Assembly: GCA_003166335.1 (NCBI GenBank)
Contig: PMWA01000058.1
Coordinates: 655 to 17,477, forward strand
From: Methanobacterium sp.
GTDB lineage: Archaea; Methanobacteriota; Methanobacteria; Methanobacteriales; Methanobacteriaceae
Length of the DNA stretch: 16,823 bases
Direction: 5' to 3'
Both the position numbers and the translations under genes were made by a program. Under the pieces are notes generated by a model. It saw only the letters and a program-made list of their open reading frames with translations. It did not search any database and had not been told where the DNA came from. Below, in pieces: positions 1 through 16,732 of this stretch; positions within the stretch are counted from its first letter, which is position 1, and the number at the start of each line of letters is the position of its first letter.

Positions 1-1679
1 ATATTGAATGAAATAATAAATTTGCTAATTATGCGGAAAAATTCTATTCCGCCTATTATGCAAATAGGGGCCAAAAATATAAGTGAAATTTGATATAACC
101 TTGAAGAATCAAGTGCACTTCCAAAGTATGGAATTATAATTCCTGCAATTAATACAATAAACATTATAAAACAAAATATCACATATTCTTTATCCATATT
201 TATAAATTTTCTTTTAATTATTAATTTTATAATTCCTATGAAAATAAAAAATTGAGATAACAAATCGAGATATTTTTCTATATTTCTTAATGGTGAAATT
301 GTCCCTTTTTGTATAATTTGCAATGCCTGTGTAGAATCTGGAGTTAAAAAATCTGTTGAGATACTACCAACAATATGATTTCCGATATGAACAACAGAAC
401 TAAATGCTGATGAACTTGAATTATAGGTATACCAAAAGTAAACTAGCACTGAAAATAGAATAACAAATGTTAATGTAATTCCCCCTTTTTTTGGGGAATA
501 TTCATAGATAAAATATTTTCTATGATCAATTAAAATAAGGATAATTATTACAAAAATAGCAGTTAATAAATAAATATATGATAATCCATAATGAGAGACA
601 ATTAATGAAAATGCAAATAAAACACTTAAAAATGATTTTTCTTTAATTTTAATTTCATCTATCATTAATAAAATTATCAAAACTAAAAATAATTCAGCAA
701 TTTCTTGTCTCGCTAACGTTACCATTTCTATAAAAAAAACATTGAAAGCCATGAAAAAAAAACAAGAAAAAAAAGCAATTTTAGATGTTGTTTGTTTTTT
801 AAATATCTCATACAATCCCAGAGGAACTAGAGAAAATATTAAAGGATATACAATTTTGAAAATCCATACCAAATTCATTCCTGATATTTTAGAATATACC
901 GGAGCAAACATTACAATACTTAACATAGCATTAAGATTATATGGAAGCGATGGATTCCAAAATCCATTAATGAAAACAATATTGGCTATGAAATATTCTT
1001 CATGGATATCATAACCCCATAAATAATTTGAAATTAAAGATGTACTAAATAATAAAGAAATAGAAATCATTAAAATTACTAATGGATATAAATTTTTAGA
1101 AATTTTATTAAATGCCGTTAATATTACTATAATTGAAATGACGATAATTAGAAGAATTGATAATAAATTGATATTATAATTATTTATTAGATATGTTCCA
1201 AAAATAGCTAAAAAAGGTAGAATAAAAATTGAAATATATGGCGATTCTGAAAACTTACTGAAATTAATGTAATTTGGATCGGAGAAATCCTTATCTCTTA
1301 TATAGCTCAAAATAGACAGTATAATAATATAAGCAGTTATTGTTATTATTAAATAATATTCAGATATTGGATTTTTTATTCCTAGAAAAGGATAAATTAA
1401 ATTCATAAAAAATCCAATAAACATTATGCTTGAGATACTTAGTCCACATGAATATAATACCGTTCTAATAGTGCCTAACTTATGTAATTTTATAATTCTT
1501 AAGATTAGGATACCCGGGATGAATAATAAATAAATAAATGATAATAATTCTCTTATTAATGGAATATGTAAATTTATCGCATCTAAACAAATTGTTACTA
1601 ATAATGCAACCTGAATAAATAAGATAAAATTGAAAAATCTACTTATTTTCCAGTCATTTATTTCAAAGATATTTAGCAA
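1..1679 (-). CDS. DUF2206-family polytopic membrane protein, 3' end outside the window
   Basis: Absent from the ORF track, presumably because it runs off the edge. Manual translation from TTG at 1679 (AGGTGA RBS at 1689-1684) gives MLNIFEINDWKISRFF...LLSFIYLLFIPGILILRII...SLISNYLWGYDIHEEY...LARQEIAELF...IIIPYFGSALDSSRLYQISLIFLAPICIIGG. The frame is the same at both ends and the motifs are typical of DUF2206. Not every codon was checked. Confidence 0.88.
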   Translation of the reverse strand, partial: MLNIFEINDWKISRFFNFILFIQVALLVTICLDAINLHIPLIRELLSFIYLLFIPGILILRIIKLHKLGTIRTVLYSCGLSISSIMFIGFFMNLIYPFLGIKNPISEYYLIITITAYIIILSILSYIRDKDFSDPNYINFSKFSESPYISIFILPFLAIFGTYLINNYNINLLSILLIIVISIIVILTAFNKISKNLYPLVILMISISLLFSTSLISNYLWGYDIHEEYFIANIVFINGFWNPSLPYNLNAMLSIVMFAPVYSKISGMNLVWIFKIVYPLIFSLVPLGLYEIFKKQTTSKIAFFSCFFFMAFNVFFIEMVTLARQEIAELFLVLIILLMIDEIKIKEKSFLSVLFAFSLIVSHYGLSYIYLLTAIFVIIILILIDHRKYFIYEYSPKKGGITLTFVILFSVLVYFWYTYNSSSSAFSSVVHIGNHIVGSISTDFLTPDSTQALQIIQKGTISPLRNIEKYLDLLSQFFIFIGIIKLIIKRKFINMDKEYVIFCFIMFIVLIAGIIIPYFGSALDSSRLYQISLIFLAPICIIGGIEFFRIISKFIISFN

Positions 1680-1763
1680 ATGCTCACCTAAATTGATATT
1701 AATTATCATTTACGAATTTTAATAAATAATCAAAAATTCAATTAAATATTATAAAATTTCAAA

Positions 1764-3013: not shown

Positions 3014-4510
3014 TTAAGATTTCACAACTTTATATTGTAATCTAAAATAAAAAATTAAAATTAGAATCAAGATAGAAGTGATTAAATACAAAAATCTTAT
3101 TATTATTGAATAATTGAGAAGTGTGAAAATTGTTTGAATGATTAGTATTACCCAAATTATTAATACTTCTTTTGATATGATCAGATTGCTTGGAACAACC
3201 TCTTTCCACAAGTAAAACGGCACAAAAATTAATGTATTGAGTACATAAGCTGTAACATATCCTATAGCTAATGCGAGGGCTCCTAAGTTTTTTAGGAGAA
3301 AAACAGTACTTATTAAAAATATAGCCCATATAATATTGTCTAAAAAACCCCACCACATAAGATTTTTAACTTCTAATTTACGGGATATTCCATCCCTGTA
3401 AGCAGTTATGCAACTTACAAACATCATTAAAGCTAATACTTGAATAAAAATGTTCGCGTTATAACCTGGCCCATATAAGAACCCTATTATTTCGGGAAAT
3501 GCTATTAAGGGTAATGCTATTATTATGACTATAAACCAGCTTCCAAATACATTAATGGTTTCCAATTGTTCATTTTCATTTTTTTCATTTGCTGCTACCA
3601 TTGGCAATAAAACTTGACCTATTACACCGGGCAAAAATGAAAGTAAAATTCCCCATTGATTTGCTGCGTTAAAAAAACCTAATTGAACATAACCTCCCTG
3701 AATGTTAATTATAATGGTATTTGCAACCCATATAATAGGCCCCACCATAACACTGGAAAGCATTGTTGGAAATGATAACTTCCAAATTACGTCTTTTTCT
3801 TTTAATGATTTTAAATAATTTATTTTGATTTTAAATTTTTCAACCAGATTATGGACTGTTATTGTATATAAAATTAAATTTATAACACTATTTATAACAA
3901 TAGCTGAAACTGCACCAATTAAACCGAAAAAATAAACTCCAGTAATCGATAAAGAAGCAGATATTACTCCCTGAAGTAATGATATGCGAGCAAGATCTTT
4001 AAAGGCTCCAAAGCCTACGATCGATCCTGATTGTATGCCTACTATGGTGTTGAAAATTAAAAGTAAGGATGCTATACGTAAAGCTGGAGCTAAACCCGGC
4101 GAAGCTAATGTATGTGACGCAAGCCAAGGTGCCATTATGAAAAGAACAGCGAACGTAACTACTCCGGATATTATCCCGAAAAGATTAGTGAGCCCCATAA
4201 TTCGTCCAGTTCGTTCTGGATCTGTTTGATGATATTGTGCTATATATTTGGTGGCAGTTATCCCTAAACCTAAGCCAGCAAATGTTGAAAATAAAATCAC
4301 TGTACTGTTTATAATACCAAACTGTCCGTAACCAAATTTGCCGAGTATCCTAGCTGTTACTATGGCGGCGATCAATGGAAAACCCTGAGATGTTAATGTA
4401 CTTATGAGATTCCAGAAAATACCATAAATAAGCTTTCCTACCACACTTCCCCGATCATCACCGGCTACTTTGCTTAGTATACTTTTCAACACTAGTTTTG
4501 GGTTTCTCAT
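3014..4510 (-). CDS. Oligosaccharide flippase (Wzx/RfbX, MOP superfamily)
   Basis: 498-aa polytopic membrane protein with ARILGKFGYGQFGII...FAGLGLGITATKYIA and GYVQLGFFNAANQW motifs, adjacent to glycosyltransferases. Confidence 0.9.
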   Translation of the reverse strand: MRNPKLVLKSILSKVAGDDRGSVVGKLIYGIFWNLISTLTSQGFPLIAAIVTARILGKFGYGQFGIINSTVILFSTFAGLGLGITATKYIAQYHQTDPERTGRIMGLTNLFGIISGVVTFAVLFIMAPWLASHTLASPGLAPALRIASLLLIFNTIVGIQSGSIVGFGAFKDLARISLLQGVISASLSITGVYFFGLIGAVSAIVINSVINLILYTITVHNLVEKFKIKINYLKSLKEKDVIWKLSFPTMLSSVMVGPIIWVANTIIINIQGGYVQLGFFNAANQWGILLSFLPGVIGQVLLPMVAANEKNENEQLETINVFGSWFIVIIIALPLIAFPEIIGFLYGPGYNANIFIQVLALMMFVSCITAYRDGISRKLEVKNLMWWGFLDNIIWAIFLISTVFLLKNLGALALAIGYVTAYVLNTLIFVPFYLWKEVVPSNLIISKEVLIIWVILIIQTIFTLLNYSIIIRFLYLITSILILILIFYFRLQYKVVKS

Positions 4511-4635
4511 AATAACCAGTATCGATAACTTTTAAAAACAAATTTTAATTAATCATATGAGTTATTTCATCCCATATCATAAAATACTATTTGGCTTTTG
4601 ATATTATACTATTAATATTATTATTCTATTATTTT

Positions 4636-4760
4636 GGCTCTGTAGAAAACCTTTTTAGATTTTCATTGATAAGTGTTTTGCGTACAGGTATATGTCGTAG
4701 CATTCGTTTTTTTAGCTTGGTTTCTTTGTTTCTCATACTTATAGGAATTTCTACAGGGCC
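4636..4760. mobile_element. 125-bp non-autonomous MITE-like derivative of the IS at 1790-2611
   Basis: 13-bp TIRs GGCTCTGTAGAAA and TTTCTACAGGGCC (1 mismatch). 4643-4733 matches 1790-1880 and 4735-4760 matches 2587-2611. Flanks ATTATTTT (4628-4635) and AATATTTT (4761-4768) are a possible 8-bp target duplication. Confidence 0.88.
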
Positions 4761-5069
4761 AATATTTTAATGAATGATAATCAGTATATGAATCAGATTA
4801 ATATATAATTTAAAAAAAAACGAACAATAAAACCTTAACTTAATTCATAGTGAATTACCAAAGGTTTTACCATAGGGGGTACAATTAACATTCAAAAAGT
4901 AATGCACCCTCTATAATAAATCAATTTGATAAAGGTCAATATGGAGGAATTTACTTTATTTTGGTATAAAAGTTTATATTTCTCATTTATCAAAAAAACT
5001 TTAATTTCTTTTTAAATGGCACAATCGATGGTATTAAAATTATTACAACTAACAAAGAAGTTGATATGT

Positions 5070-6182
5070 ATGAAAATAATTATTTTAGCACCAATGTTAT
5101 GGAATAGTATAGGGGGACATCCTATTGAATTGGCTAAAGTATTATCTGACAAACATCAAATAGATTATTTAGAACCCATAGTTCATTCATCAAATCTGCC
5201 AATATCTTTTAAGATAACTTCGAATAATACAGTCCCAAAAAATGTTAACATAATCAAAAGATCTACAAATTTAGGAGCTAATTTCTTTTATTTAATCTAT
5301 ACTGAATACAAAAATCTTCTTTATTTTATTAAAGAAGATTACGATGTATATATAACTTATCATACAACATTTAATATTTTAGGAATTATATTTGCAAAAT
5401 TAACAGGAAAAAAAGTCGTTTTAATTTATGTCGATGATTTATCTGATCTATTTAAAGTACTATTGATTAAAATATTTACTAAATACCTATTTACACCTTT
5501 AGTAGCTTCATTATCAGGTTTAATCATTGTTACATCATATAAACTTAAAAAGTCAATTGATTTATTCAACAGAAATATTGAATATATACCTAATGGAGTT
5601 AATTTACATTCATTTAAAGTTGAAGACACTTTTAAAGAGAAATCAGAATTCATAGTTGGCTTTGTAGGAGGTTTTGGAAACTGGATTAATTTTGATATGG
5701 TTCTAAAATCGGCTCAATTTTTAATGGATAATGGTGTTAAATTTGTCTTAATAGGGGATGGTGAAATGTTTAATTATGTTAAAGATAAAATAAGTGAACT
5801 TAAACTTGATAACATAGAATTGCTTGGAGTTAAATCTCATACTGATTTGCCAAAGTTAATATGTGAAATGGATATATGCATAATCCCATTTAAAGTAAAT
5901 CATTTAACTGACAGGGTTTCTCCTGTGAAGTTATTTGAATACTGGTCATTAAAAAAACCAGTAATATCAACAAGCTTTTATGAAATTAAGAAAATTGCAA
6001 AAGATAAAGTAATTTTTGTAAATAATTCAAAAGAACTTAGTTATTCAATTTTAAAGTTTAAAAACAACAAAAATTTATGTAAAAAATATGGGGATATTGG
6101 ATACGATGAAGTAAGAAAAAACTATGATTGGAATATTTTAGCAGGAAAATATGAATTATTAATAAAAAAATTATTCATTTAA
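5070..6182 (+). CDS. GT4-family glycosyltransferase (TuaH-like)
   Basis: GT-B motifs YIPNGVN, VGFVGGFGNW, LIGDGE, DICIIPF and SPVKLFEYWSLKKPVIST. Start at ATG 5070 (MKIIILAP) is preferred over 5016. Confidence 0.88.
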   Translation: MKIIILAPMLWNSIGGHPIELAKVLSDKHQIDYLEPIVHSSNLPISFKITSNNTVPKNVNIIKRSTNLGANFFYLIYTEYKNLLYFIKEDYDVYITYHTTFNILGIIFAKLTGKKVVLIYVDDLSDLFKVLLIKIFTKYLFTPLVASLSGLIIVTSYKLKKSIDLFNRNIEYIPNGVNLHSFKVEDTFKEKSEFIVGFVGGFGNWINFDMVLKSAQFLMDNGVKFVLIGDGEMFNYVKDKISELKLDNIELLGVKSHTDLPKLICEMDICIIPFKVNHLTDRVSPVKLFEYWSLKKPVISTSFYEIKKIAKDKVIFVNNSKELSYSILKFKNNKNLCKKYGDIGYDEVRKNYDWNILAGKYELLIKKLFI

Positions 6183-6220
6183 TATAAAATTACTATATTT
6201 CTAACTTACTAATTAGTCAA

Positions 6221-7432
6221 TCATTTATCGACTAAGTTATTGTATACATTATTTATTCTTTTGGCATATCCTTCCCAGGTCCAACCTTCATTAATAACGA
6301 GTTTTCTCCCATTTTCTCCCATTTTTTTCATGACATCTTCATTATCAAGCAAGTATTTAATTTTATTTGCCAGTGCATCCATGTCTTCCGGTTCAAACAA
6401 AAGACCAGTATGATTGTCTTTAACTTGATCAGGGATTCCTCCAACATTAGTTGCAATGACGGCACATTCACTGGACATAGCTTCATATATCACCACAGGC
6501 TTGCCTTCCGTCAAAGAGGGTAAAATAAACAGATCAGCCACTGAATACCAATCTTCTAATTCTTTACCTCTAAGTTCACCTTTAAAAGTGACAATTTCTT
6601 GAAGATCCAAGTTCCTAGACAATTTTTGAAGATTATTCACTTCAGAACCTTTACCTATAATAACTACCTGTAAATTAATATCAGACGTTCCATATTTTGT
6701 TCTCAATTCATATATGGCTCTTAATAAATAATCAACGCCTTTTAATTTATCTAAACGTCCAACGTATAATATGATTTTACCCGCCTCTATCTTTAACTGT
6801 TTCTTAAGTGAAATTTTGTCGTCTGGTTTAAATTTGTAGACATCCACCCCCAGAGAGATTATTTCAATCTTCCCTGAATCAACACCAACTTCAATTAACA
6901 ATTCCGATAACTCTTCGCTAATGCAAATTATTTTACTAGAAAATTCAAATACCTCCATAACTTTATTTTTTATCCTGTCATCTTCTAGCCATGTTTTCAA
7001 CGAACCAGTGCTATGCAACTCCACAATCAACGGTACATTCCATTCTCTGCACAGATCCATCACCCCATATCCATCGGGATAAATTTGATGAGCATGCACT
7101 AAATCCGCTTCTTCAACATTGTTTAAAATATAATTTGAAACTGATTGACGATAAAAATCACCGATAAATCCATAAAAAATTTTTTTAGGCAATAAATAAA
7201 GGAAACGAGGATGATGAACAGTTCCCTCCTCTGAATATTCCATTAATGGTATTTTACTGAATTCATAGAAAGGCAAATATTTAAGGGGAGGAGAAAAAGG
7301 AATAGGAGCAATAACTTCGATATCAACATCTTGTAACTGGGAAATTGCCAGGTTTGCATATCTGTTCCAAGGAGTCCATAAATAAAATTTGTTAGGATAG
7401 TGTACAGATACCATAAGGGAACGAATTTTCAT
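6221..7432 (-). CDS. GT4-family glycosyltransferase (TuaC/WlbH-like)
   Basis: Motifs LVHAHQIYPDGY, ILYVGRLDKLKGVDYL and DLFILPSLTEGKPVVIYEAMSSECAVIATNVGGIPD (EX7E). Confidence 0.92.
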   Translation of the reverse strand: MKIRSLMVSVHYPNKFYLWTPWNRYANLAISQLQDVDIEVIAPIPFSPPLKYLPFYEFSKIPLMEYSEEGTVHHPRFLYLLPKKIFYGFIGDFYRQSVSNYILNNVEEADLVHAHQIYPDGYGVMDLCREWNVPLIVELHSTGSLKTWLEDDRIKNKVMEVFEFSSKIICISEELSELLIEVGVDSGKIEIISLGVDVYKFKPDDKISLKKQLKIEAGKIILYVGRLDKLKGVDYLLRAIYELRTKYGTSDINLQVVIIGKGSEVNNLQKLSRNLDLQEIVTFKGELRGKELEDWYSVADLFILPSLTEGKPVVIYEAMSSECAVIATNVGGIPDQVKDNHTGLLFEPEDMDALANKIKYLLDNEDVMKKMGENGRKLVINEGWTWEGYAKRINNVYNNLVDK

Positions 7433-7502
7433 GATTAATTTATTCCTTTAACATGATTAATGAATTACTATTAATATAGTTTCATAAAAAAAAATATATC
7501 AG

Positions 7503-8717
7503 TTAATTTAAATTGTCTAAATGTATTTTCAACTCAGAAACAATATCAGCACGGTCATAATGGGCTTTAACATATTCTCTACCATTCTTACCCATTTCTT
7601 CTAGTTTCTGAGGATTATTCAATAAAGTGATTATTGCATCAGATATTGCATCGGATGAATCATTAGTAATGATTCCTGCCTTTGATTTATGAGCTAATTC
7701 ACTTATTTCTCCATTTCCACTTGCAATAAATGGTAGTTCACATGCCAGATACTCGTAAACTTTAACTGGTACCATATACTCAAGTGATTTTAATTTTTTC
7801 ATGGGTGCTAATCCAATTAGAGATTCTGAAAGTAATTCAGGCACCTTTTCACGGGGGACTGAACCCTTGAATTCAATTACATCCTCCAAACCTAGCTTTT
7901 GTACCATTTTTTCTAATTCTTCCTTTCTTTCACCATCCCCCACGATTAGAAATTTGACATCATGCATTTTAGTAACATTTTTCATAGCTTGGATGTATTT
8001 TTCAAGATCTTGGGCATGACCAATGTTTCCTAAAAATATTATTTGATTTTTTTTAGAAACACTCTGACGATGAAAAATTTCTGTATCCGCTCCATTGGGA
8101 ATTAAAATTATTTTCTTATCATTAATATCATAAATATTTGATAATCTTTGGGCAAGCACATTAGTGGTTGCTCCCACTAGATCAGCATTATTATAACATA
8201 CTTTTTCAAATTTTCTGGCAATTTTTTCTAATGTACTTTCTTTTTCAAGGAAGCCAAGTGAAATTGAAGCATCTATCCATGAATCTCTTGCATCGATAAT
8301 CCATCTTTTTTTGAATAACTTTTTAGAAATAAGTCCAGGAATTGCAGTGAAAACCGGTGGATTAGAGGTTATGATTAAATCATAATGTTTGGAATAAAGT
8401 AGAGTCCATATAGAGGCATGTAATGGAAATATTAAATAATATAGCACTCTACTTATAAATCCAGGATCCTTTGAACCATTTTGCCATCCCCATAAGTTTA
8501 AAACTTTAACTCCTTCAATCTCACTAGATCTACGGATTTTCCTTCGTTTTTTGAAAGTTTTTTTAGGAAAAGACGGATAAGGGGTAAAAACTGTAGTGTT
8601 TACCCCAAATTTATTTAAAAATTTAGACATTTCATATATACGTGATGCATTAGCTATATTTTCAGGCGGGAAATGTTGAGTTATAATTAAAATTTGATTC
8701 TTATTCTGTTCATTCAT
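7503..8717 (-). CDS. GT4-family glycosyltransferase (WbuB-like)
   Basis: Motifs ITQHFPPE, PYPSFP, LIPNGAD, FLGNIGHAQDLE, IVGDGE and PVKVYEYLACELP. Confidence 0.92.
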   Translation of the reverse strand: MNEQNKNQILIITQHFPPENIANASRIYEMSKFLNKFGVNTTVFTPYPSFPKKTFKKRRKIRRSSEIEGVKVLNLWGWQNGSKDPGFISRVLYYLIFPLHASIWTLLYSKHYDLIITSNPPVFTAIPGLISKKLFKKRWIIDARDSWIDASISLGFLEKESTLEKIARKFEKVCYNNADLVGATTNVLAQRLSNIYDINDKKIILIPNGADTEIFHRQSVSKKNQIIFLGNIGHAQDLEKYIQAMKNVTKMHDVKFLIVGDGERKEELEKMVQKLGLEDVIEFKGSVPREKVPELLSESLIGLAPMKKLKSLEYMVPVKVYEYLACELPFIASGNGEISELAHKSKAGIITNDSSDAISDAIITLLNNPQKLEEMGKNGREYVKAHYDRADIVSELKIHLDNLN

Positions 8718-9246: not shown

Positions 9247-9861
9247 TTATAAATAAAATGTTTTATTCTGAATATTACCTAAAATATTCCCTGGTTCATT
9301 AACTGGATAATAAATATAATTACCCACCAAAACCAGGCCACCATTATTATTAGTTATAGTATAATTACCAATCCAATCTGTGTCTACTCCATTGATGGTG
9401 AATGTGCCCTTCAATATATGTCCATTATTCTGGAAATAAGAAGTACCATTCCAAGCACTGCAAGTCATATTCATACTACCACTAAAAATGCTGCTGAACA
9501 TGGCATCCTTCAAGTTATTCTCATATAAACCAAGGACAGTACCAGGGGTTACTTTAATCAGGTTAATATGTCCATTAACATGTAAACCACTACTTATATA
9601 ATCCAATGGAAATGAGGTGTTACTAGCACCGCCTGTGAGGATCATTAAGATGTTAAAATTCTGACCAGTACCATTCACGGTGTAATAACCACCCAAACTA
9701 CTGCCATTAAGCTCATTAGCCGGTATCAAAACATGACTACTGAAATCATACTTCATTCCATTAAACATTAAACCACTAAAAGTACCCATAGTATATTCTA
9801 AGGTGCCTGCAATGATTATTATGGCAGCGATTATGGTTAATGCTAAATATTTCTTCTGCAT
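9247..9861 (-). CDS. Hypothetical exported or membrane-anchored protein, Asn/Gly/Thr-rich
   Basis: 204 aa with an N-terminal KK plus hydrophobic stretch, a beta-rich-looking body and about 7 N-X-S/T sequons. Confidence 0.8.
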   Translation of the reverse strand: MQKKYLALTIIAAIIIIAGTLEYTMGTFSGLMFNGMKYDFSSHVLIPANELNGSSLGGYYTVNGTGQNFNILMILTGGASNTSFPLDYISSGLHVNGHINLIKVTPGTVLGLYENNLKDAMFSSIFSGSMNMTCSAWNGTSYFQNNGHILKGTFTINGVDTDWIGNYTITNNNGGLVLVGNYIYYPVNEPGNILGNIQNKTFYL

Positions 9862-9908
9862 ATAATATTACACTCATATAATAGGTTAATTGTTATAAAA
9901 AAAGATTT

Positions 9909-9918
9909 AAAAAAAAAA
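9909..9918 (-). terminator. Putative archaeal oligo-T terminator
   Basis: T10 on the minus strand, about 20 nt after the stop of 9940-10578. Confidence 0.45.
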
Positions 9919-9939
9919 GTTTAAATGGGAGATTTTTTT

Positions 9940-10578
9940 TTAGATTAATTCTGCAATGGTTTGACTGAGTCCGCCGGGTTTAGTAACAGTTATAATGAGG
10001 TCACCATTACTATCTTCAGTTAATAATAATTCATTGAATGAGTTAGTGTAAGTTGTATTAACATTCGGTGAATTCATACTAATATATCCAACAGTACCTG
10101 TTACATTAGATGGTAACGGACCGATAGGTACATTTAAAGATGTTAAATTGTAAAGTGGATCAATTACTGGTGGTGCTGCACCGTTACTCCATCCTCTAAC
10201 AGTTAAATTTAAATTACCATTACCACTGTTATTAGGATTAAACAATCCAGTCCAGGTGTCAATTCTAAGAAAAGATCCCACAGGTAATGATTTGTTATTA
10301 TATCCGAGTAAGCTGCTGATGTCAAAAGTTTTATTTTCACCAGGTTTAAGCCAGGCTTCACCATAATAAACTTGTGTGGTATTATTAACAGTAGTGTCAT
10401 TTAAAATGACAAACTCGATATGCGTCCAAGCTTGAGTATTATTGTTATAAAATTCGAGTTTAGTGCCGTTTTGAGTTAAAGTATTACTAGTAGTTCCTCC
10501 CATCATCATTATCGCTGCAACCGCTCCAATAATTATTAAAACAACCGCAACTATTAATATAATGATAGGGGTTCTCAT
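9940..10578 (-). CDS. Hypothetical membrane-anchored surface protein, sequon-rich
   Basis: 212 aa with an N-terminal signal/anchor helix and about 12 N-X-S/T sequons. Its ATG overlaps the stop of the upstream gene (ATGA). Confidence 0.82.
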   Translation of the reverse strand: MRTPIIILIVAVVLIIIGAVAAIMMMGGTTSNTLTQNGTKLEFYNNNTQAWTHIEFVILNDTTVNNTTQVYYGEAWLKPGENKTFDISSLLGYNNKSLPVGSFLRIDTWTGLFNPNNSGNGNLNLTVRGWSNGAAPPVIDPLYNLTSLNVPIGPLPSNVTGTVGYISMNSPNVNTTYTNSFNELLLTEDSNGDLIITVTKPGGLSQTIAELI

Positions 10579-10808
10579 ACTATTGTAACCACCTTATAAG
10601 CAACTATGGCAACAAATACTATTAATAAAGGTATTATGGCCACGTTCGCACCTTTTAAAAAGGATTGTACTGATTTATGCTCTGCTTCTGAACTCAAAAT
10701 CTCCTTAAGAGCCAAGAAAACTATTAAAGATACAACTGCGATTATACTTAAAGTCATTACCTCAGTAGTAGTGACCGTAGTAGTGGTAGTTGTTACAGTA
10801 GATATCAT
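10575..10808 (-). CDS. Small membrane protein with a poly-Thr N-terminus and two hydrophobic helices
   Basis: 77 aa: MISTVTTTTTTVTTT, TM1, charged loop, TM2. ATGA coupling to the next gene, a TATA element upstream and mixed Thr codons all support real coding. Confidence 0.82.
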   Translation of the reverse strand: MISTVTTTTTTVTTTEVMTLSIIAVVSLIVFLALKEILSSEAEHKSVQSFLKGANVAIIPLLIVFVAIVAYKVVTIV

Positions 10809-11030: not shown

Positions 11031-12464
11031 TCAACCCGTAACATTACCTCCAGTTGAGGCGGTGATGTTAAGCCATAAATGAAGTGACCGGTAAACATTA
11101 CTATCATCCGGCAATTTATATAAATTAAAAACCATCTCCCTAGAACCCGGATCACCCGCCGTGAAGTTAAAAGGAATCATTATCGATTGCTGATTATTTA
11201 AAGTGACCACTTCATCAATCTGCGCAATATTATCACTAGTCACCACCAAATGATAACTAGTCTGCTTATTCTCATGATTCACAATACCAATAATCAAACT
11301 ACCATTCTCACCACTCGTTAAATTAGTTGGATAATCACTAGCCATACCACCCGGACCTAAAATATAAAACTCAGTAAAAGACTCACCCACCTTAGGCTCC
11401 ACAATAACATACACCGTAGCAGACACCGCCACCAATATGGATAAGATTAGAATCACTGATAAGACTTTACCAGTTCTAGATTCCCCGGAGAAACCCGCAC
11501 CTAAACTTTTAAAGAATCCACTGAAATCTACCCGGAAACGAGCCTCACTCGGTGTAAAACGCCTCCTCACATACGCTACAACAACTAATAAAATCGTTAA
11601 ACTACTTAACGATAATAAAATAGGATCCAAACGAATACCAAAACTAGTATAATTCAATAGTAAACCAACGAGTGGAGTAACTGCGATGCTCAATCCAAAA
11701 CTCAATGCTAAACGCTCAACACTATCCAAATCCCCCATTTTAGGAAACAAAGCAGCTATAAGAGCATAACCAGGTAAAAAAAGAATCAAAAATAATCCTA
11801 AAACCGTACGCGGTACAGTTCCACTTAAAACAGGAGTTAAAATAAACACTACAGTAAGAACTGTGAAGAAACCAATTAATACTAAATCCCATGCATAAAA
11901 ACCCTTTTTACTCTTAACTTTATTCTCATCACCCTTTACAGGTTCCTCTTTACTACTAGATTGCAATGATTCTAATTTCTCATCACTTTTAGAACCCGAA
12001 ACCTCCAATTCCAACTTATCAAGAAGCTGCTGACCTAAATTCTCCCGTTCAACCAGAATCTGCTTCTCATCAAAACCAGCTTCTTCCTTAATATTATCCA
12101 AAACAGCTCTTCGAAAAGAAGTCCTACGACGAATAAAAGCAGCAATGATTAAAATAAATGTCAATATCGGTATCACCACAAACATAGCTATCGAAGAAGG
12201 ATTAAAAACTGATAAAAGACTAACTGTAACCGTTAACAATAAACTTAAAACAATACTATAAATAACACGTCTAACTACACCCATCCGATAAAGAAGAGGT
12301 TTCAATACAGCCAAAAGTGAGTAACCAGATAAAAATACTAACAATAAAAAATAAGGTACAATATTAAAAGGATACTTAACCAACACTGGAATACTCAACC
12401 AAGCCACTGAGGCAACAGTTAAAACAAGTACAATTATAAGGTCACGATAAGATGGTTTAATCAT
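11031..12464 (-). CDS. DUF1616-domain membrane protein with a duplicated N-terminal membrane module
   Basis: LFLPGYALIAALFP...ERLALSFGLSIAVTPLVGLLLNYT and ESFTEFYILGPGGMASDYPTNL...GIVNHE...YRSLHLW are characteristic of DUF1616. AGGAG RBS at 12480-12476. Confidence 0.88.
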   Translation of the reverse strand: MIKPSYRDLIIVLVLTVASVAWLSIPVLVKYPFNIVPYFLLLVFLSGYSLLAVLKPLLYRMGVVRRVIYSIVLSLLLTVTVSLLSVFNPSSIAMFVVIPILTFILIIAAFIRRRTSFRRAVLDNIKEEAGFDEKQILVERENLGQQLLDKLELEVSGSKSDEKLESLQSSSKEEPVKGDENKVKSKKGFYAWDLVLIGFFTVLTVVFILTPVLSGTVPRTVLGLFLILFLPGYALIAALFPKMGDLDSVERLALSFGLSIAVTPLVGLLLNYTSFGIRLDPILLSLSSLTILLVVVAYVRRRFTPSEARFRVDFSGFFKSLGAGFSGESRTGKVLSVILILSILVAVSATVYVIVEPKVGESFTEFYILGPGGMASDYPTNLTSGENGSLIIGIVNHENKQTSYHLVVTSDNIAQIDEVVTLNNQQSIMIPFNFTAGDPGSREMVFNLYKLPDDSNVYRSLHLWLNITASTGGNVTG

Positions 12465-12616: not shown

Positions 12617-12895
12617 ATGAAACTCTTACCCCACTCAACCATAGTAGTTAACAAAGACGTAGTAAGCTGTGACCTAGTTGACGAAGCTGCCATACTCAAC
12701 CTAAAAACTGGAATATACTACGGATTAGAGCCCGTAGGAGAACGCATCTGGAAACTCATCCAAACACCCCGACAACTAAATGAAATATTAGAAACACTCC
12801 TAAATGAATATGAAGTAGAAAAAGACCGCTGCCAAGAAGATTTAATAGAATTACTAATACAACTTTCAGAAAAAGAATTGGTAAATATAAATTGA
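12617..12895 (+). CDS. PqqD-family RiPP recognition element (lasso B1-like chaperone)
   Basis: DVVSCDLVDEAAILNLKTGIYYGLEPVGERIWKLI...LLNEYEVEKDRCQEDLIELLIQL. GGTGG RBS at 12601-12605 favours ATG 12617 over GTG 12602. Confidence 0.92.
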   Translation: MKLLPHSTIVVNKDVVSCDLVDEAAILNLKTGIYYGLEPVGERIWKLIQTPRQLNEILETLLNEYEVEKDRCQEDLIELLIQLSEKELVNIN

Positions 12896-12912
12896 GGTTA
12901 GATTAAAAAAAA

Positions 12913-13320
12913 ATGAAAATATTAACTAATTTTCTGAAGCAGACCCGGGTAGATCAACAACTCCTCATAACCACTCTCCTATCCATGATCATAATCCGAT
13001 TGAAACTATATTTAATACCATTCAACCGTAAACAACGATCACTAGAGAGAAGTAACAATAAAACAGCAAATGAAGTTCCCGTCCACAAATTAATCTGGGC
13101 AGTGCAAACAGTAAGCAATTATGTACCACATGCAACCTGTCTCACCAAAGCATTAACCGCCCAAAAATTACTTAAAAAATACGGTTACCCCAGCCAAGTT
13201 AAAATCGGTGTAAATAAAGACGCAGAAGGACAATTTGAAGCTCACGCCTGGCTAGAATACTCCGGAAAAGTGGTAATTGGAGAATCAGTGAAAGAATATG
13301 TACCACTCACCGATTTATAA
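12913..13320 (+). CDS. Lasso peptide biosynthesis B2-type protein (transglutaminase-like Cys peptidase)
   Basis: ATCLTKALTAQKLL (catalytic Cys) and VKIGV...FEAHAWLE (catalytic His). Lies 17 nt downstream of the PqqD gene. Confidence 0.9.
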   Translation: MKILTNFLKQTRVDQQLLITTLLSMIIIRLKLYLIPFNRKQRSLERSNNKTANEVPVHKLIWAVQTVSNYVPHATCLTKALTAQKLLKKYGYPSQVKIGVNKDAEGQFEAHAWLEYSGKVVIGESVKEYVPLTDL

Positions 13321-13450
13321 AACAAATCCCCTAAATTTATATATTTATAAATTATTTATCCTCTACTCTCCCTAATATGAATTTAGACTAATATTACCCA
13401 ATTATTGTTATACCCCCCTAATAATGGTGAAAAATGGAATGAGAAATAAA

Positions 13451-13632
13451 CTAGTTAATTTTTTTTCTATCTCCAATTGATAAATCCACATATTCCACAG
13501 GTTTAATATTAAAATATCTCCAGATCTAATTAAAGGTAACATACTAACCCCGAAGGCCTTGAAACGAAAACTATAACCTTTATCAAGAACCTCCTCCCAT
13601 AAATCAGAAGTTAATTCATCATTAATTTCCAA
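13451..13632 (-). pseudogene. S24/S26-family signal-peptidase-like gene remnant
   Basis: From TTG 13632: LEINDELTSDLWEEVLDKGYSFRFKAFGVSMLPLIRSGDILI (GxSMxP...GD catalytic Ser motif). A 1-nt frameshift near 13508 continues IKPVEYVDLSIGD, followed by a stop at 13451-13453. The second catalytic motif is absent. Confidence 0.75.
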
Positions 13633-13693
13633 ATTTTTACCTTCTAAAAAAAAAATCCATTTCTTTTTATATCTTTTATTAGTATGATAGGAT

Positions 13694-15514
13694 TTATTCC
13701 TGTTCAATGGATTGAAATTTATGAAAACTATTAAATTTACCATTATTCTTAGACAATAGCTCATCCCATGTTCCAGATTCAACTATACTACCGTTTTCCA
13801 TGAAATATATCTGGTCTGCTTTGCGAATAGTGGAAAGACGATGTGCAATCATCAGGATAGTGATATCACCATGCAGATTTTCAACCGAATTTAATATACG
13901 TTTTTCATTTTCAGAATCCAGATTACTAGTTGCTTCATCCAAAATAATTATAGAAGGCTTCCTAAGCAAAGCACGAGCCAACGCTAATCTCTGCTTCTCA
14001 CCACCAGATAATTTAACACCACGATCACCAATAAAAGTATCCAAACCATCAGGAAGCTCCTCCACAAAATCATAAGCCGCAGCCAATCTAAGAGAATTAA
14101 TTAAATCTTTCTCAACAGCATCTGGCTGAGTTAAAAGCAAATTAAAACGGATAGTTTCATTAAATAAGAAAGTCTCCTGAGCCACATAACCAATCCTATC
14201 CCGCCAAGATAAAAGATTATCCTGAGCTAAAGGAACATTATCAACCTTAATAACACCACTATCCGGTTGAATTAAACCCATAAGCAAATCCGCCACCGTA
14301 CTTTTACCCGCACCAGACGATCCAGTAATCGCAATAGTTTCACCCACCGGTATCCTAAGATTTAAATCCTCAATTTTAAAATGATCCTCACCCCTATACG
14401 AAAAAAATATATGATCAAAATTAATCATATTCTCTAAAACCATCACATCCCCCTCAGATTCCGTAGAATCAATATTCTGTAAACATTGCATTTCAAGTTG
14501 GTTAATATTATCAAACGCCGGCAGTGAATTAATGAAATACTGATAACTACTCTGAATAGTACTAAACTGTGGAAACATCATCACAAATATATAAATCAAT
14601 ATAAGTAAACTAGCAATGGGTATTTTAACTAATTGGATTAAAGTCAACACAATAATAGCCAACATAATCACCGTACCCACGTCAAATAATAATTTAACAT
14701 CAGCATAAGTTTTTACAGCATCCAAATAACCATCCATCACCTGATTAGTCTGATCAGAAAATACTTTGATATTCTCATCCTGCATTCCAAAACTTTTAAT
14801 GGTTTTCATACCATCCAAATGCTGCATAATACTATTATATATATTCCTAGTAGTATCCGTAATATTCTCACCACTCGAAATAGATCTCCTAACCCTTCTC
14901 CTAAGTAATAATAAAATAATTACACCGGCAATAAATATTAAACCAGTAGTAACACCCGCTAATTCAAGCGCGAAAATTATATACACCACTAGAACCATCA
15001 AACCCGCCAACAAATTAAGAAACTGACCCGTACCAACACTAACTCTTTCCACTTCATTCGTTAAAGCATGAGCAAAGCTTGATGACTTCATTCTAGTGAA
15101 AAATAACCAATCTGAATTTGTAATAGCCCGGTAAAGACGTTTACGGAGATGAGCAGCAAATTCAAACTGAATTTGCGAGGATTTAATAGTCTGCAAACGA
15201 TGCAATATTGCAATGAAACTCATCACCAACACATAAACCAATAAAATTATAAACAAGGTTGGCTTCAAATGCACTGTAAGAAAGAATGCAGATACATAGG
15301 CGGCAATCGCACCCAGAGAACCCTGCCCTACATTTAAACCCACCAACTCCAAAAGAGGAATCAATAAAAGCAAACTTACACCCGTGGATAGGCTAATTAA
15401 CACCATCAAAAAAACAGTCAACCCCACTTTCCGAGGCATTAAACTAAATAAATCATTAATAAAATGACCCAATAAACTATTTTTATATTTAAATAATATA
15501 GTTTCAGCAGCCAT
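13694..15514 (-). CDS. ABC exporter, fused permease and ATP-binding domain (MsbA/lasso D-like)
   Basis: N-terminal TM domain, Walker A GSSGAGKST, Q-loop YVAQE, signature LSGGEKQR, Walker B IIILDEATS and IAHR. GGAGTGA RBS favours ATG 15514 over GTG 15520. Confidence 0.93.
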   Translation of the reverse strand: MAAETILFKYKNSLLGHFINDLFSLMPRKVGLTVFLMVLISLSTGVSLLLLIPLLELVGLNVGQGSLGAIAAYVSAFFLTVHLKPTLFIILLVYVLVMSFIAILHRLQTIKSSQIQFEFAAHLRKRLYRAITNSDWLFFTRMKSSSFAHALTNEVERVSVGTGQFLNLLAGLMVLVVYIIFALELAGVTTGLIFIAGVIILLLLRRRVRRSISSGENITDTTRNIYNSIMQHLDGMKTIKSFGMQDENIKVFSDQTNQVMDGYLDAVKTYADVKLLFDVGTVIMLAIIVLTLIQLVKIPIASLLILIYIFVMMFPQFSTIQSSYQYFINSLPAFDNINQLEMQCLQNIDSTESEGDVMVLENMINFDHIFFSYRGEDHFKIEDLNLRIPVGETIAITGSSGAGKSTVADLLMGLIQPDSGVIKVDNVPLAQDNLLSWRDRIGYVAQETFLFNETIRFNLLLTQPDAVEKDLINSLRLAAAYDFVEELPDGLDTFIGDRGVKLSGGEKQRLALARALLRKPSIIILDEATSNLDSENEKRILNSVENLHGDITILMIAHRLSTIRKADQIYFMENGSIVESGTWDELLSKNNGKFNSFHKFQSIEQE

Positions 15515-15526
15515 AGTCACTCCGAA

Positions 15527-16732
15527 TTATTTTAATAAATATGTTTTATTTAGTTTAATTAAAATTTTTAGAATCCCAGTTTTTTTTATATATTTTAAAG
15601 CAAGATAAATGCTATTAACATAATAAAGAGGATATAATGAGTTAGGAATAGGAATAGTTGCTAATTGAGCAGGACGCGGATTAAAAAAAATCGATAAATA
15701 ATCTCTTATTTCATTAATAAAGCTCTCTCTTAACCCAATCCGATCCCATGCGGACCAATAAAAATTTATTGAATCTTTATTAAAAAGATTTTTTTGCATC
15801 CTATAAGAAATAGACTGCACTTTTTTGTCTTCCGCAAATTTCTGATAAACATCATCCGGAAGATTCACACCTATTAATTCCTTAGCTAATAAAAGAGATA
15901 CACCCAATATTCTATTTACACTACTCTTACTTGCCTTATCCAGTATCCTATCCCAATTTAATTCTTTATAAGTATTAATAATTTGCGCGATATCACAGAT
16001 CCAACCTAAGGAGTCCCATAAATGACCGGAAGCGTGCAATGATAAAATTAAAACTAACTCTTCCGGGGCGAAAGTTGAGAAACAGAAACCATCACCCCTA
16101 ACCTGAGTAATATAATTAGAATCATAAATCATATCATTATGCAAACGATTAACATTAAAATCCCAATGCAACTCCAAAATCAAAGTAGGATTATTCTGAA
16201 AAAATTTATACTCATGCTGAAACCTAAACAACAACTCCATCTGCGAATGATCTAACTCATAACATGAATCAAAACCATTAGAATTAAGTAATTCCTTTGC
16301 CTTAACAATATCTTCCTTCCTCACAAAAACATCTAGATCACCAAAATCCCTTAAAGCTAAATCTCCATAAGCAAGCAACGCTAAAACAAGCCCCTTATAT
16401 GGAATAGCCAAAATACCATTAGAATTCAATAAATCAAGAATTTCAAACAATTTACCCGCTAAAATAAAATTTCGTCTCGAAACTTCTAAAAACTTATTTT
16501 CAAGATCACTTAAAACATTTACCGGCACCATGTCTGGATATTTATTAAGATTCAAATATAAAAGCGGCGTCATTTTATGATAAAAGGCTTCATCCAAAAT
16601 ATATTGCCAATCCAAATCCTTTTTCAACAAAGAAAGAATCTTAAATTCAATATCACTCCTCAAATCCGTCCGAGCACAACAAAGAATTAACTCCTCTTCA
16701 GGACGAAAATTAACCTTTCCACTTACATCCAT
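15527..16732 (-). CDS. Nucleotidyltransferase family protein (NTP_transf_5-like)
   Basis: AIPYKGLVLALLAYGDLALRDFGDLDVFV (KG...R..GDxD), LELHW and LSLHASGHLW..LGWICDI motifs. Stop is 12 nt from the ABC gene ATG. Confidence 0.88.
   Translation of the reverse strand: MDVSGKVNFRPEEELILCCARTDLRSDIEFKILSLLKKDLDWQYILDEAFYHKMTPLLYLNLNKYPDMVPVNVLSDLENKFLEVSRRNFILAGKLFEILDLLNSNGILAIPYKGLVLALLAYGDLALRDFGDLDVFVRKEDIVKAKELLNSNGFDSCYELDHSQMELLFRFQHEYKFFQNNPTLILELHWDFNVNRLHNDMIYDSNYITQVRGDGFCFSTFAPEELVLILSLHASGHLWDSLGWICDIAQIINTYKELNWDRILDKASKSSVNRILGVSLLLAKELIGVNLPDDVYQKFAEDKKVQSISYRMQKNLFNKDSINFYWSAWDRIGLRESFINEIRDYLSIFFNPRPAQLATIPIPNSLYPLYYVNSIYLALKYIKKTGILKILIKLNKTYLLK

Follow-up and report, generated by a model that had tools for sequence, protein, structure and literature searches.

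A probable split lasso peptide pathway of Methanobacterium with genes near surface-glycan and DUF11 adhesin genes

The window analysed here is a stretch of 16,823 nucleotides from a Methanobacterium draft genome (G000:C125:655-17477; the assembly has 126 contigs), which carries lasso peptide genes within a surface-glycan locus. Together with genes on a second contig of the assembly (C62) and on a metagenome contig (L085), they very probably form a split, paeninodin-like archaeal lasso peptide pathway. We call it paeninodin-like because genes and precursor have the sequence features of lasso systems but lack the terminal Ser of the paeninodin subtype. On balance, the product seems to work at the cell surface with an anchorless adhesin and glycan (in adhesion, aggregation or matrix), and not as an antibiotic. 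For pathway identity and surface role together we estimate a probability of about 0.58.

Lasso genes in the window and on separate contigs

A preliminary description of the window had named a recognition element for peptides made by ribosomes and modified after translation (RRE and RiPP, respectively), a B2 peptidase, a nucleotidyltransferase (NTase), an ABC protein and a remnant of an S26 peptidase, and family matches confirmed each of them at its place. The B1 gene (12617..12895, + strand) encodes an RRE of 92 amino acids with the PqqD fold (PF05402, E 3.6e-17, 62.9 bits, cut-off 23.4), of which the best NCBIfam match was lasso_PqqD_Bac NF033536, with 71.3 bits under the cut-off of 80. The following B2 gene (12913..13320, + strand) encodes a lasso leader peptidase of 135 amino acids (PF13471, E 5e-21; NF033537, 95.5 bits, cut-off 33). 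Its catalytic residues Cys76 and His111 were invariant in 29 of 29 aligned orthologues, and this alignment showed no invariant Asp after them. B1 and B2 are the sole PF05402 and PF13471 matches in the assembly, which also holds two NTP_transf_5 matches. One of these is a PsmN-like protein in the window with a DxD (15527..16732, - strand; E 1.8e-50, DFGDLD motif). Next to it lies an MsbA/HepA-like ABC exporter with membrane and ATPase domains (13694..15520, - strand; HepA family, 363 bits, under the cut-off of 725). This exporter groups among the ABC proteins from the lasso clusters of relatives and is, judged by its sequence, likely to be protein D of the pathway.

As the preliminary description had noted, no cyclase, kinase or precursor was found in the window (0 motif matches). 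This absence is local only. Scaffold gaps (NN) flank the window on both sides. To its right the scaffold continues for 7.1 kb, and none of the three genes was found among the open reading frames there, which were read by eye. Just past 16823 this reading gave no cyclase or precursor; the genes there resemble small toxin-antitoxin genes, an epimerase and a nucleotide-sugar dehydrogenase. The lasso cyclase of this genome is a protein of 624 amino acids on C62, a contig of 2654 bases (NF033535, 701.5 bits against a cut-off of 525). It starts with MSAITG and lacks the Cys2 of glutamine-using AsnB. Another Asn_synthase protein, of 506 amino acids on contig C107, was rejected as cyclase; its start is MCAIVG, and it shares 25% identity with the cyclases.

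The metagenome contig L085 covers all of C62 with a single mismatch (2653 of 2654 bases) and extends 1.45 kb past its end. There it carries a gene for an HprK-like protein of 303 amino acids (L085 2797-3708, - strand; Hpr_kinase_C, E 4.7e-7, and HprK_rel_A, E 3.7e-11, both under cut-off), followed by a lasso precursor of 40 amino acids (L085 3739-3861, - strand; NF033521, 21.3 bits, cut-off 19). The precursor has a leader of the form YNKPRL...VTK and the core GTLSHGAETGGYHKGIP, with Glu8 as predicted acceptor, a C-terminal Pro and a computed cyclic monoisotopic mass of 1662.81 (MH+ 1663.82). Tyr12, His13 and Lys14 are candidate plugs of a predicted threaded product. On either side, L085 terminates in the 3' end of a DUF11 gene; the two genes converge, their ends are near-identical, and neither has a sorting tail. 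The 119-nt inverted repeat that these ends form plausibly caused the assembly break at C62. The kinase-like and precursor genes likely follow the C62 cyclase, in a stretch that is missing from the assembly and flanked by two DUF11 adhesin genes. The earlier suggestion that the C and A genes of a lasso cluster are located outside the window gains support from the cyclase on C62 and the two further genes on L085.

All runs that contain the window are peat or permafrost metagenomes. Run X1 holds 0.98 of the window's words and is possibly the source run of the assembly. One of its contigs (L085 2698-4039) spans the end of C62 into the kinase-like and precursor genes, at a depth of 6.8 compared to 5.0-8.4 on the window. 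Run X5, from a different study, covers the window plus the kinase-precursor segment. Contigs from RNA runs span a large part of the window and portions of the cyclase and do not span the kinase-like gene or precursor; they are uninformative on transcription either way.

Precursors and DUF11 adhesins in Methanobacteriaceae

We searched 151 genomes of the family, counting as strong those B2 matches with E below 1e-7. B2 was found in 49 genomes, the cyclase in 48 and both in 45; no cyclase match was obtained in 15 genomes from other families of the phylum. With the exception of L103, the family cyclases form one clade (FastTree 0.989) in a tree that also holds cyanobacterial, other bacterial, Methanothrix and halophile cyclases and was not tested for root or donor. 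The named relatives are Methanobacterium and other Methanobacteriaceae. In 27 of 33 relatives (an AsnB-like protein of L096 was removed), the fetched 20 kb contain all three of the A, B and C genes, whereas in our organism these are on different contigs. Five genomes carry cyclase-precursor cassettes away from B1 and B2 and have one B2 match each (G063, G081, G093, G117 and G148), so that action in trans is likely the norm for such cassettes. For instance, the nearer cyclase of G063, from the same genus, lies about 44 kb from B2.

Precursors adjoin 32 of the 35 cyclases examined; the other three are a cyclase at the margin of the fetched region, one at the end of its contig and a frameshifted one. 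The precursor filter demanded an acceptor residue, and the Asp/Glu feature is thus partly built in. Nine loose motif matches that failed this filter were left out of the counts, and as a control the motif gave 0 matches in 59,187 short frames of G000. Core statistics comprise 31 relatives and L085, and L063 was excluded from alignment A1 (long tail, likely a frameshift). The predicted core ends in Ser in 12 of 32 cases. Kinase adjacency does not track this residue, which is present in only 2 of the 15 precursors that adjoin a kinase gene. Core position 1 can also be Lys (4), Gln or Asn, which are unusual first residues for lasso peptides. The Lys-start cores, with Asp at position 7, are found in L041, L068, L076 and L078 (also L090), and the Gln and Asn starts in L046 and L070. 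Some cores contain two Cys residues that could form a disulfide (L064, L060, L111 and L116). Two precursors belong to cultured strains, Methanobacterium ferruginis NBRC 105197 (L105; predicted MH+ 1251.59) and M. oryzae DSM 11106 (L112; predicted MH+ 1579.77), and a family-wide set of predicted archaeal precursors with searchable masses is now available.

A DUF11 gene was located at most 3.4 kb from 30 of the 32 precursors, in 22 cases immediately upstream of it and on the same strand. A profile made from sequences of the family detected DUF11 in 15 of 16 family loci (at least 10 kb, named set) compared to 0 of 47 others. A Pfam scan of the non-family loci found no DUF11 in 24 of 26 long frames, the remaining two being overlapping antisense frames that were not scanned. 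Three short records labelled as other taxa carry DUF11 and all nest in the family clade, two of them placed by a full-length cyclase in the tree; they may be mis-binned. Related clusters with precursors and without DUF11 genes occur in other archaea (L118, L121, L145 and L158), and one of these, from a Methanothrix harundinacea metagenome-assembled genome, has four tandem precursors (L118:9933-10604).

The linked DUF11 proteins have a signal-peptide-like start, a variable head (thioester-like, beta-helix or PMP repeats) and a tandem DUF11 stalk. By eye their N-termini look like ordinary signal peptides, and the giant adhesin was rejected as a lasso substrate. The usual C-terminus of DUF11 proteins encoded elsewhere combines an MQxTG-like motif, a hydrophobic segment and a basic end. 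This tail is present in 17 of 22 unlinked DUF11 frames of five lasso-positive genomes and in 22 of 32 frames, plus 4 variants, of five lasso-negative genomes, counts for which most but not all DUF11 genes were fetched and open (cut) frames were dropped. None of the 32 main-cluster DUF11 frames has it (two of these 32 have gaps, and some of the 32 are frameshift pieces), and most stop directly after the last DUF11 domain. None of the 32 frames from the lasso-negative genomes ends anchorless at a DUF11 domain. A single unlinked protein is anchorless and lies about 25 kb from a cluster (L199). Sortases were present in 5 of 5 genomes checked. From motif and sortases, we read the MQxTG/MKxTG motif with its transmembrane segment and basic tail as a probable sortase-type signal; the tails (loci L184-L223) matched no NCBIfam model. 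At the presumed isopeptide-Lys position, assigned from the motif, Gln is found in 24 of 31 linked terminal domains, while unlinked domains have Lys in 28 of 57, with 22 unclassified.

An FxLYD lipoprotein was found in 47 of the 151 genomes, 43 of which have cyclase or B2. In G043, a genome with no cyclase match, a homologue lies amid anchored DUF11 genes (G043:C1:157314-157700, in L206), and the lipoprotein may go with the adhesins rather than with the lasso peptide.

As at the ends of L085, cassettes in two relatives lie between inverted 3' parts of converging adhesin genes, which share 96-99% identity (L061:7795-15107 of G063 and L063:6266-12734 of G117). The repeat in L061 has 1803 nt and 98% identity. 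Such ends could potentially flip the cassette; the cyclase-kinase-precursor cassette has the same orientation in G063 and G117. The second NTP_transf_5 gene of our assembly (G000:C15:809-1981), followed by two epimerases in a sugar-epimerase locus, is sister to a G063 copy sited just past the adhesin cassette, and may be the original NTase of the cyclase-precursor cassette.

Surface-glycan genes and the S26 remnant

The DUF1616, GT4, Wzx and DUF2206 neighbours reported before were all recovered as family matches. Divergent from B1 lies the gene of a DUF1616 membrane protein (11031..12464, - strand), a family that recurs in relatives, in 18 of 33 regions centred on B2 or the cyclase. It is followed by a 77-amino-acid membrane frame (10575..10808, - strand; no family match), which is highly conserved, has a Thr-rich N-terminus and follows DUF1616 in many relatives; one may guess that it is possibly glycosylated. 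Next are two conserved proteins of 204 and 212 amino acids with hydrophobic N-termini (9247..10578, - strand; no Pfam match), which also follow DUF1616 in relatives. Genes for a Wzx flippase and three GT4 glycosyltransferases occupy 3014..8717, and a DUF2206 membrane protein (3..1709, - strand) is cut by the scaffold gap. Between them, three short frames without a Pfam match resemble a broken transposase of insertion sequence (IS) type (1764-2540, - strand). A conserved linkage to glycan genes had been proposed as a check, and it holds: the stretch fetched around B2 contains such genes in 23 of 33 genomes, or in 26 if DUF1616 is counted. Wzz and Wzy genes also adjoin some bacterial homologues.

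The S26 (signal peptidase I) remnant (13450..13632, - strand; lower boundary approximate) consists of a homologous stretch followed by a frameshift and truncation. Over 43 residues it shares 86% identity with an intact TIGR02228 signal peptidase I of 165 amino acids from G100, a genome of the same genus. A strain variant in the runs lacks the frameshift. The intact G100 peptidase heads a cassette with a kinase-like protein, PqqD, a radical-SAM enzyme and a precursor type of its own. G089, G115 and G027 have comparable cassettes or remnants, which in the latter two lie downstream of the ABC gene of the lasso cluster. Most probably, the S26 fragment is left over from such a co-resident radical-SAM RiPP cassette and is not part of the lasso pathway. 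The loci of this second cassette are L088:3934-8258 (G100), L090:1187-4520 (G115), L089:2869-5769 (G089) and, as a remnant, L053:3099-3176 (G027). It comprises signal peptidase I, an HprK-like protein, PqqD, a radical SAM/SPASM enzyme and a precursor with a leader like that of linear polyphosphorylated peptides (LPP), of the form YxKPxIxxExxFEKxVL-x-C-x-K with further Cys. No NCBIfam radical-SAM family scored above cut-off for the enzyme. In our assembly, which has gaps, tblastn gave no match to the G100 precursor of this type, its RRE or its kinase.

Proposed pathway, alternatives and known systems

From the chemistry of the families, B1 would bind the YNKPRL leader of the 40-amino-acid precursor, B2 would cut two residues past Thr22, after Thr-Lys, and the C62 cyclase would close a Gly1-Glu8 ring of GTLSHGAETGGYHKGIP. 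The single B1-B2 pair would have to act in trans on the distant cassette, and the ABC protein would export the product. More tentatively, the HprK-like enzyme may phosphorylate a Ser or Thr, and the PsmN-like enzyme may put a hexose on the phosphate; these steps are less certain because neither this core nor 13 of the 15 precursors adjoining a kinase gene have a terminal Ser. Most speculatively, the product might act with the anchorless adhesin at the cell surface. A more specific version, which we consider doubtful, is that a phospho-glycosylated lasso is a fastener that ties anchorless giant adhesins to surface glycan, alone or with the FxLYD lipoprotein, and that its variable core sets strain-specific aggregation. 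The tie to an anchorless adhesin makes a vague idea of biofilm function specifically testable, and aggregation of these organisms matters for methane production in peat and digesters.

Several observations weigh against a lasso pathway with a surface role. For pathway identity, no contig joins the window and C62, and this link is inferred. Neither an HprK-like gene nor a precursor was found in the G000 assembly (for the precursor, a regular expression and a hidden Markov model from 14 relatives were used, best E 0.15), and the assignment of both genes to this organism relies on the near-identical contig and co-coverage. The NTase-ABC-S26 block is not fixed beside B2 either: in G131 a copy with 97% DNA identity, and an S26 likewise truncated, lies between histidine-kinase-like genes, and G063 has no such block beside B2. 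For the surface role, the stretch fetched around 2 of the 32 precursors contains no adhesin gene, and a distinct clade of linked terminal domains had to be rejected, as the nearest neighbour is another terminal domain in only 10 of 31 cases.

The remaining points are shared with the alternative that survives best, which we regard as possible. In it, the lasso product is a diffusible signal or narrow-spectrum antimicrobial, and the adhesin and glycan genes are mere co-inherited neighbours in a variable surface-gene island. The mean identity of the hypervariable ring sequences is 18%, compared to 49% in the leader motif; this agrees no less well with a signal or weapon than with a structural tether. 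T-runs of six or more in 12 of 19 adhesin-precursor spacers suggest separate transcription. In the orphan cassettes, 5 of 11 DUF11 frames carry the sorting tail of ordinary anchored adhesins. Moreover, the genomes are related and their cyclases form a single clade (except L103). The counts for adhesins, anchors and glycan genes thus do not represent independent events, and one old linkage may underlie them. However, the adhesin stays beside the precursor across many gene orders, even far from B1-B2 and the glycan genes, in genomes that carry roughly 5 to 17 DUF11 genes only (by eye). The anchorless class was not found in the five lasso-negative genomes. In addition, the available text of PMC6993621 reports that pseudomycoidin producers inhibited none of three test strains.

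It is improbable that the pathway is decaying or incomplete, with B1-B2 uncoupled from the C62 cassette or the L085 segment stemming from a sister strain. Such decay would agree with the S26 pseudogene and IS-like remnant in the window, the frameshifted cyclases of some relatives (G099, G123 and G087), the FxLYD lipoprotein, which is typical of the clusters and was not found in G000, and the strain variants present in the runs. On the other hand, all seven lasso genes (B1, B2, ABC, NTase, cyclase, kinase-like gene and precursor) are open, full-length frames, and DNA depth matches in X1 and X5. The proposal that RRE and B2 were repurposed for envelope protein or glycan maturation with no lasso peptide, to which the glycan locus and the separation from the cyclase in this genus had lent weight, is very unlikely given the cyclase in the genome, the precursor on L085, the low number of B2-positive genomes without a cyclase match (4 of 49: G104, G130, G131 and G141, in assemblies of 30 to 150 contigs) and adjacent adhesins that begin, by eye, with hydrophobic signal-peptide-like segments and not lasso leaders.

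We found no Methanobacterium lasso cluster, product or adhesin link, nor any characterised archaeal lasso peptide, in the literature searched, which did not include most subscription papers and survey supplements. Earlier genome mining had predicted euryarchaeal lasso clusters (Tietz et al. 2017, as cited in the accessible part of PMC7533575; also PMC12214591), and the supplements of RODEO-type surveys probably list some of these precursors already. The available parts of PMC13692751 and PMC13289728 describe a different archaeal radical-SAM system and bacterial rumen clusters, respectively, and the main text of PMC13658579 contains neither 'lasso' nor 'DUF11'.

LPP and lasso clusters occur in capsule loci according to the accessible text of Popov et al. 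2026 (PMC13381572), which also reports the glycan/capsule link of paeninodin clusters in Bacilli and states the biological role of paeninodin-type peptides as unknown. The system of the window is best read as not LPP, with its S26 relic paralleling LPP beside paeninodin. Unlike in LPP, the signal peptidase of the window is a pseudogene, and the assembly has one PqqD match. Intact relatives of the peptidase sit with a radical-SAM enzyme, and their precursors differ from the YxxPxVLxHQxIxFETxxS form given in that text, where adhesins are not mentioned for LPP or capsule lasso loci.

Compared with the DUF11/CLIPPER fibrillar adhesins (Costa et al. 2025, PMC12617251, available part), the lasso-linked proteins are alike in signal-like start, variable head and DUF11 stalk. 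In contrast to these, they lack the sorting tail and mostly have Gln for the isopeptide Lys.

The closest known systems are paeninodin (pade) and pseudomycoidin (psmCAKB1B2ND), as described in the accessible text of PMC6993621. The archaeal genes share with them the cyclase, the split B1/B2, a candidate HprK-like kinase, the NTP_transf_5 protein with DxD and the ABC exporter, as well as a YxxPxL...T-x leader and an Asp/Glu at core position 7-9. Similar to pseudomycoidin, 8 of 32 archaeal tails have no bulky residue. The earlier view that kinase and NTase decorate the C-terminus cannot simply be carried over: unlike in paeninodin, a terminal Ser is found in a minority of the archaeal cores, and the core of this species ends in Pro. 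In contrast to the Bacillota systems, the host is an archaeon and the genes are split over distant loci. Finally, the archaeal clusters differ from both in their tie to DUF11 adhesin genes and an FxLYD lipoprotein, and the literature searched gave no report of this adhesin linkage, while the glycan linkage has a precedent in Bacilli.

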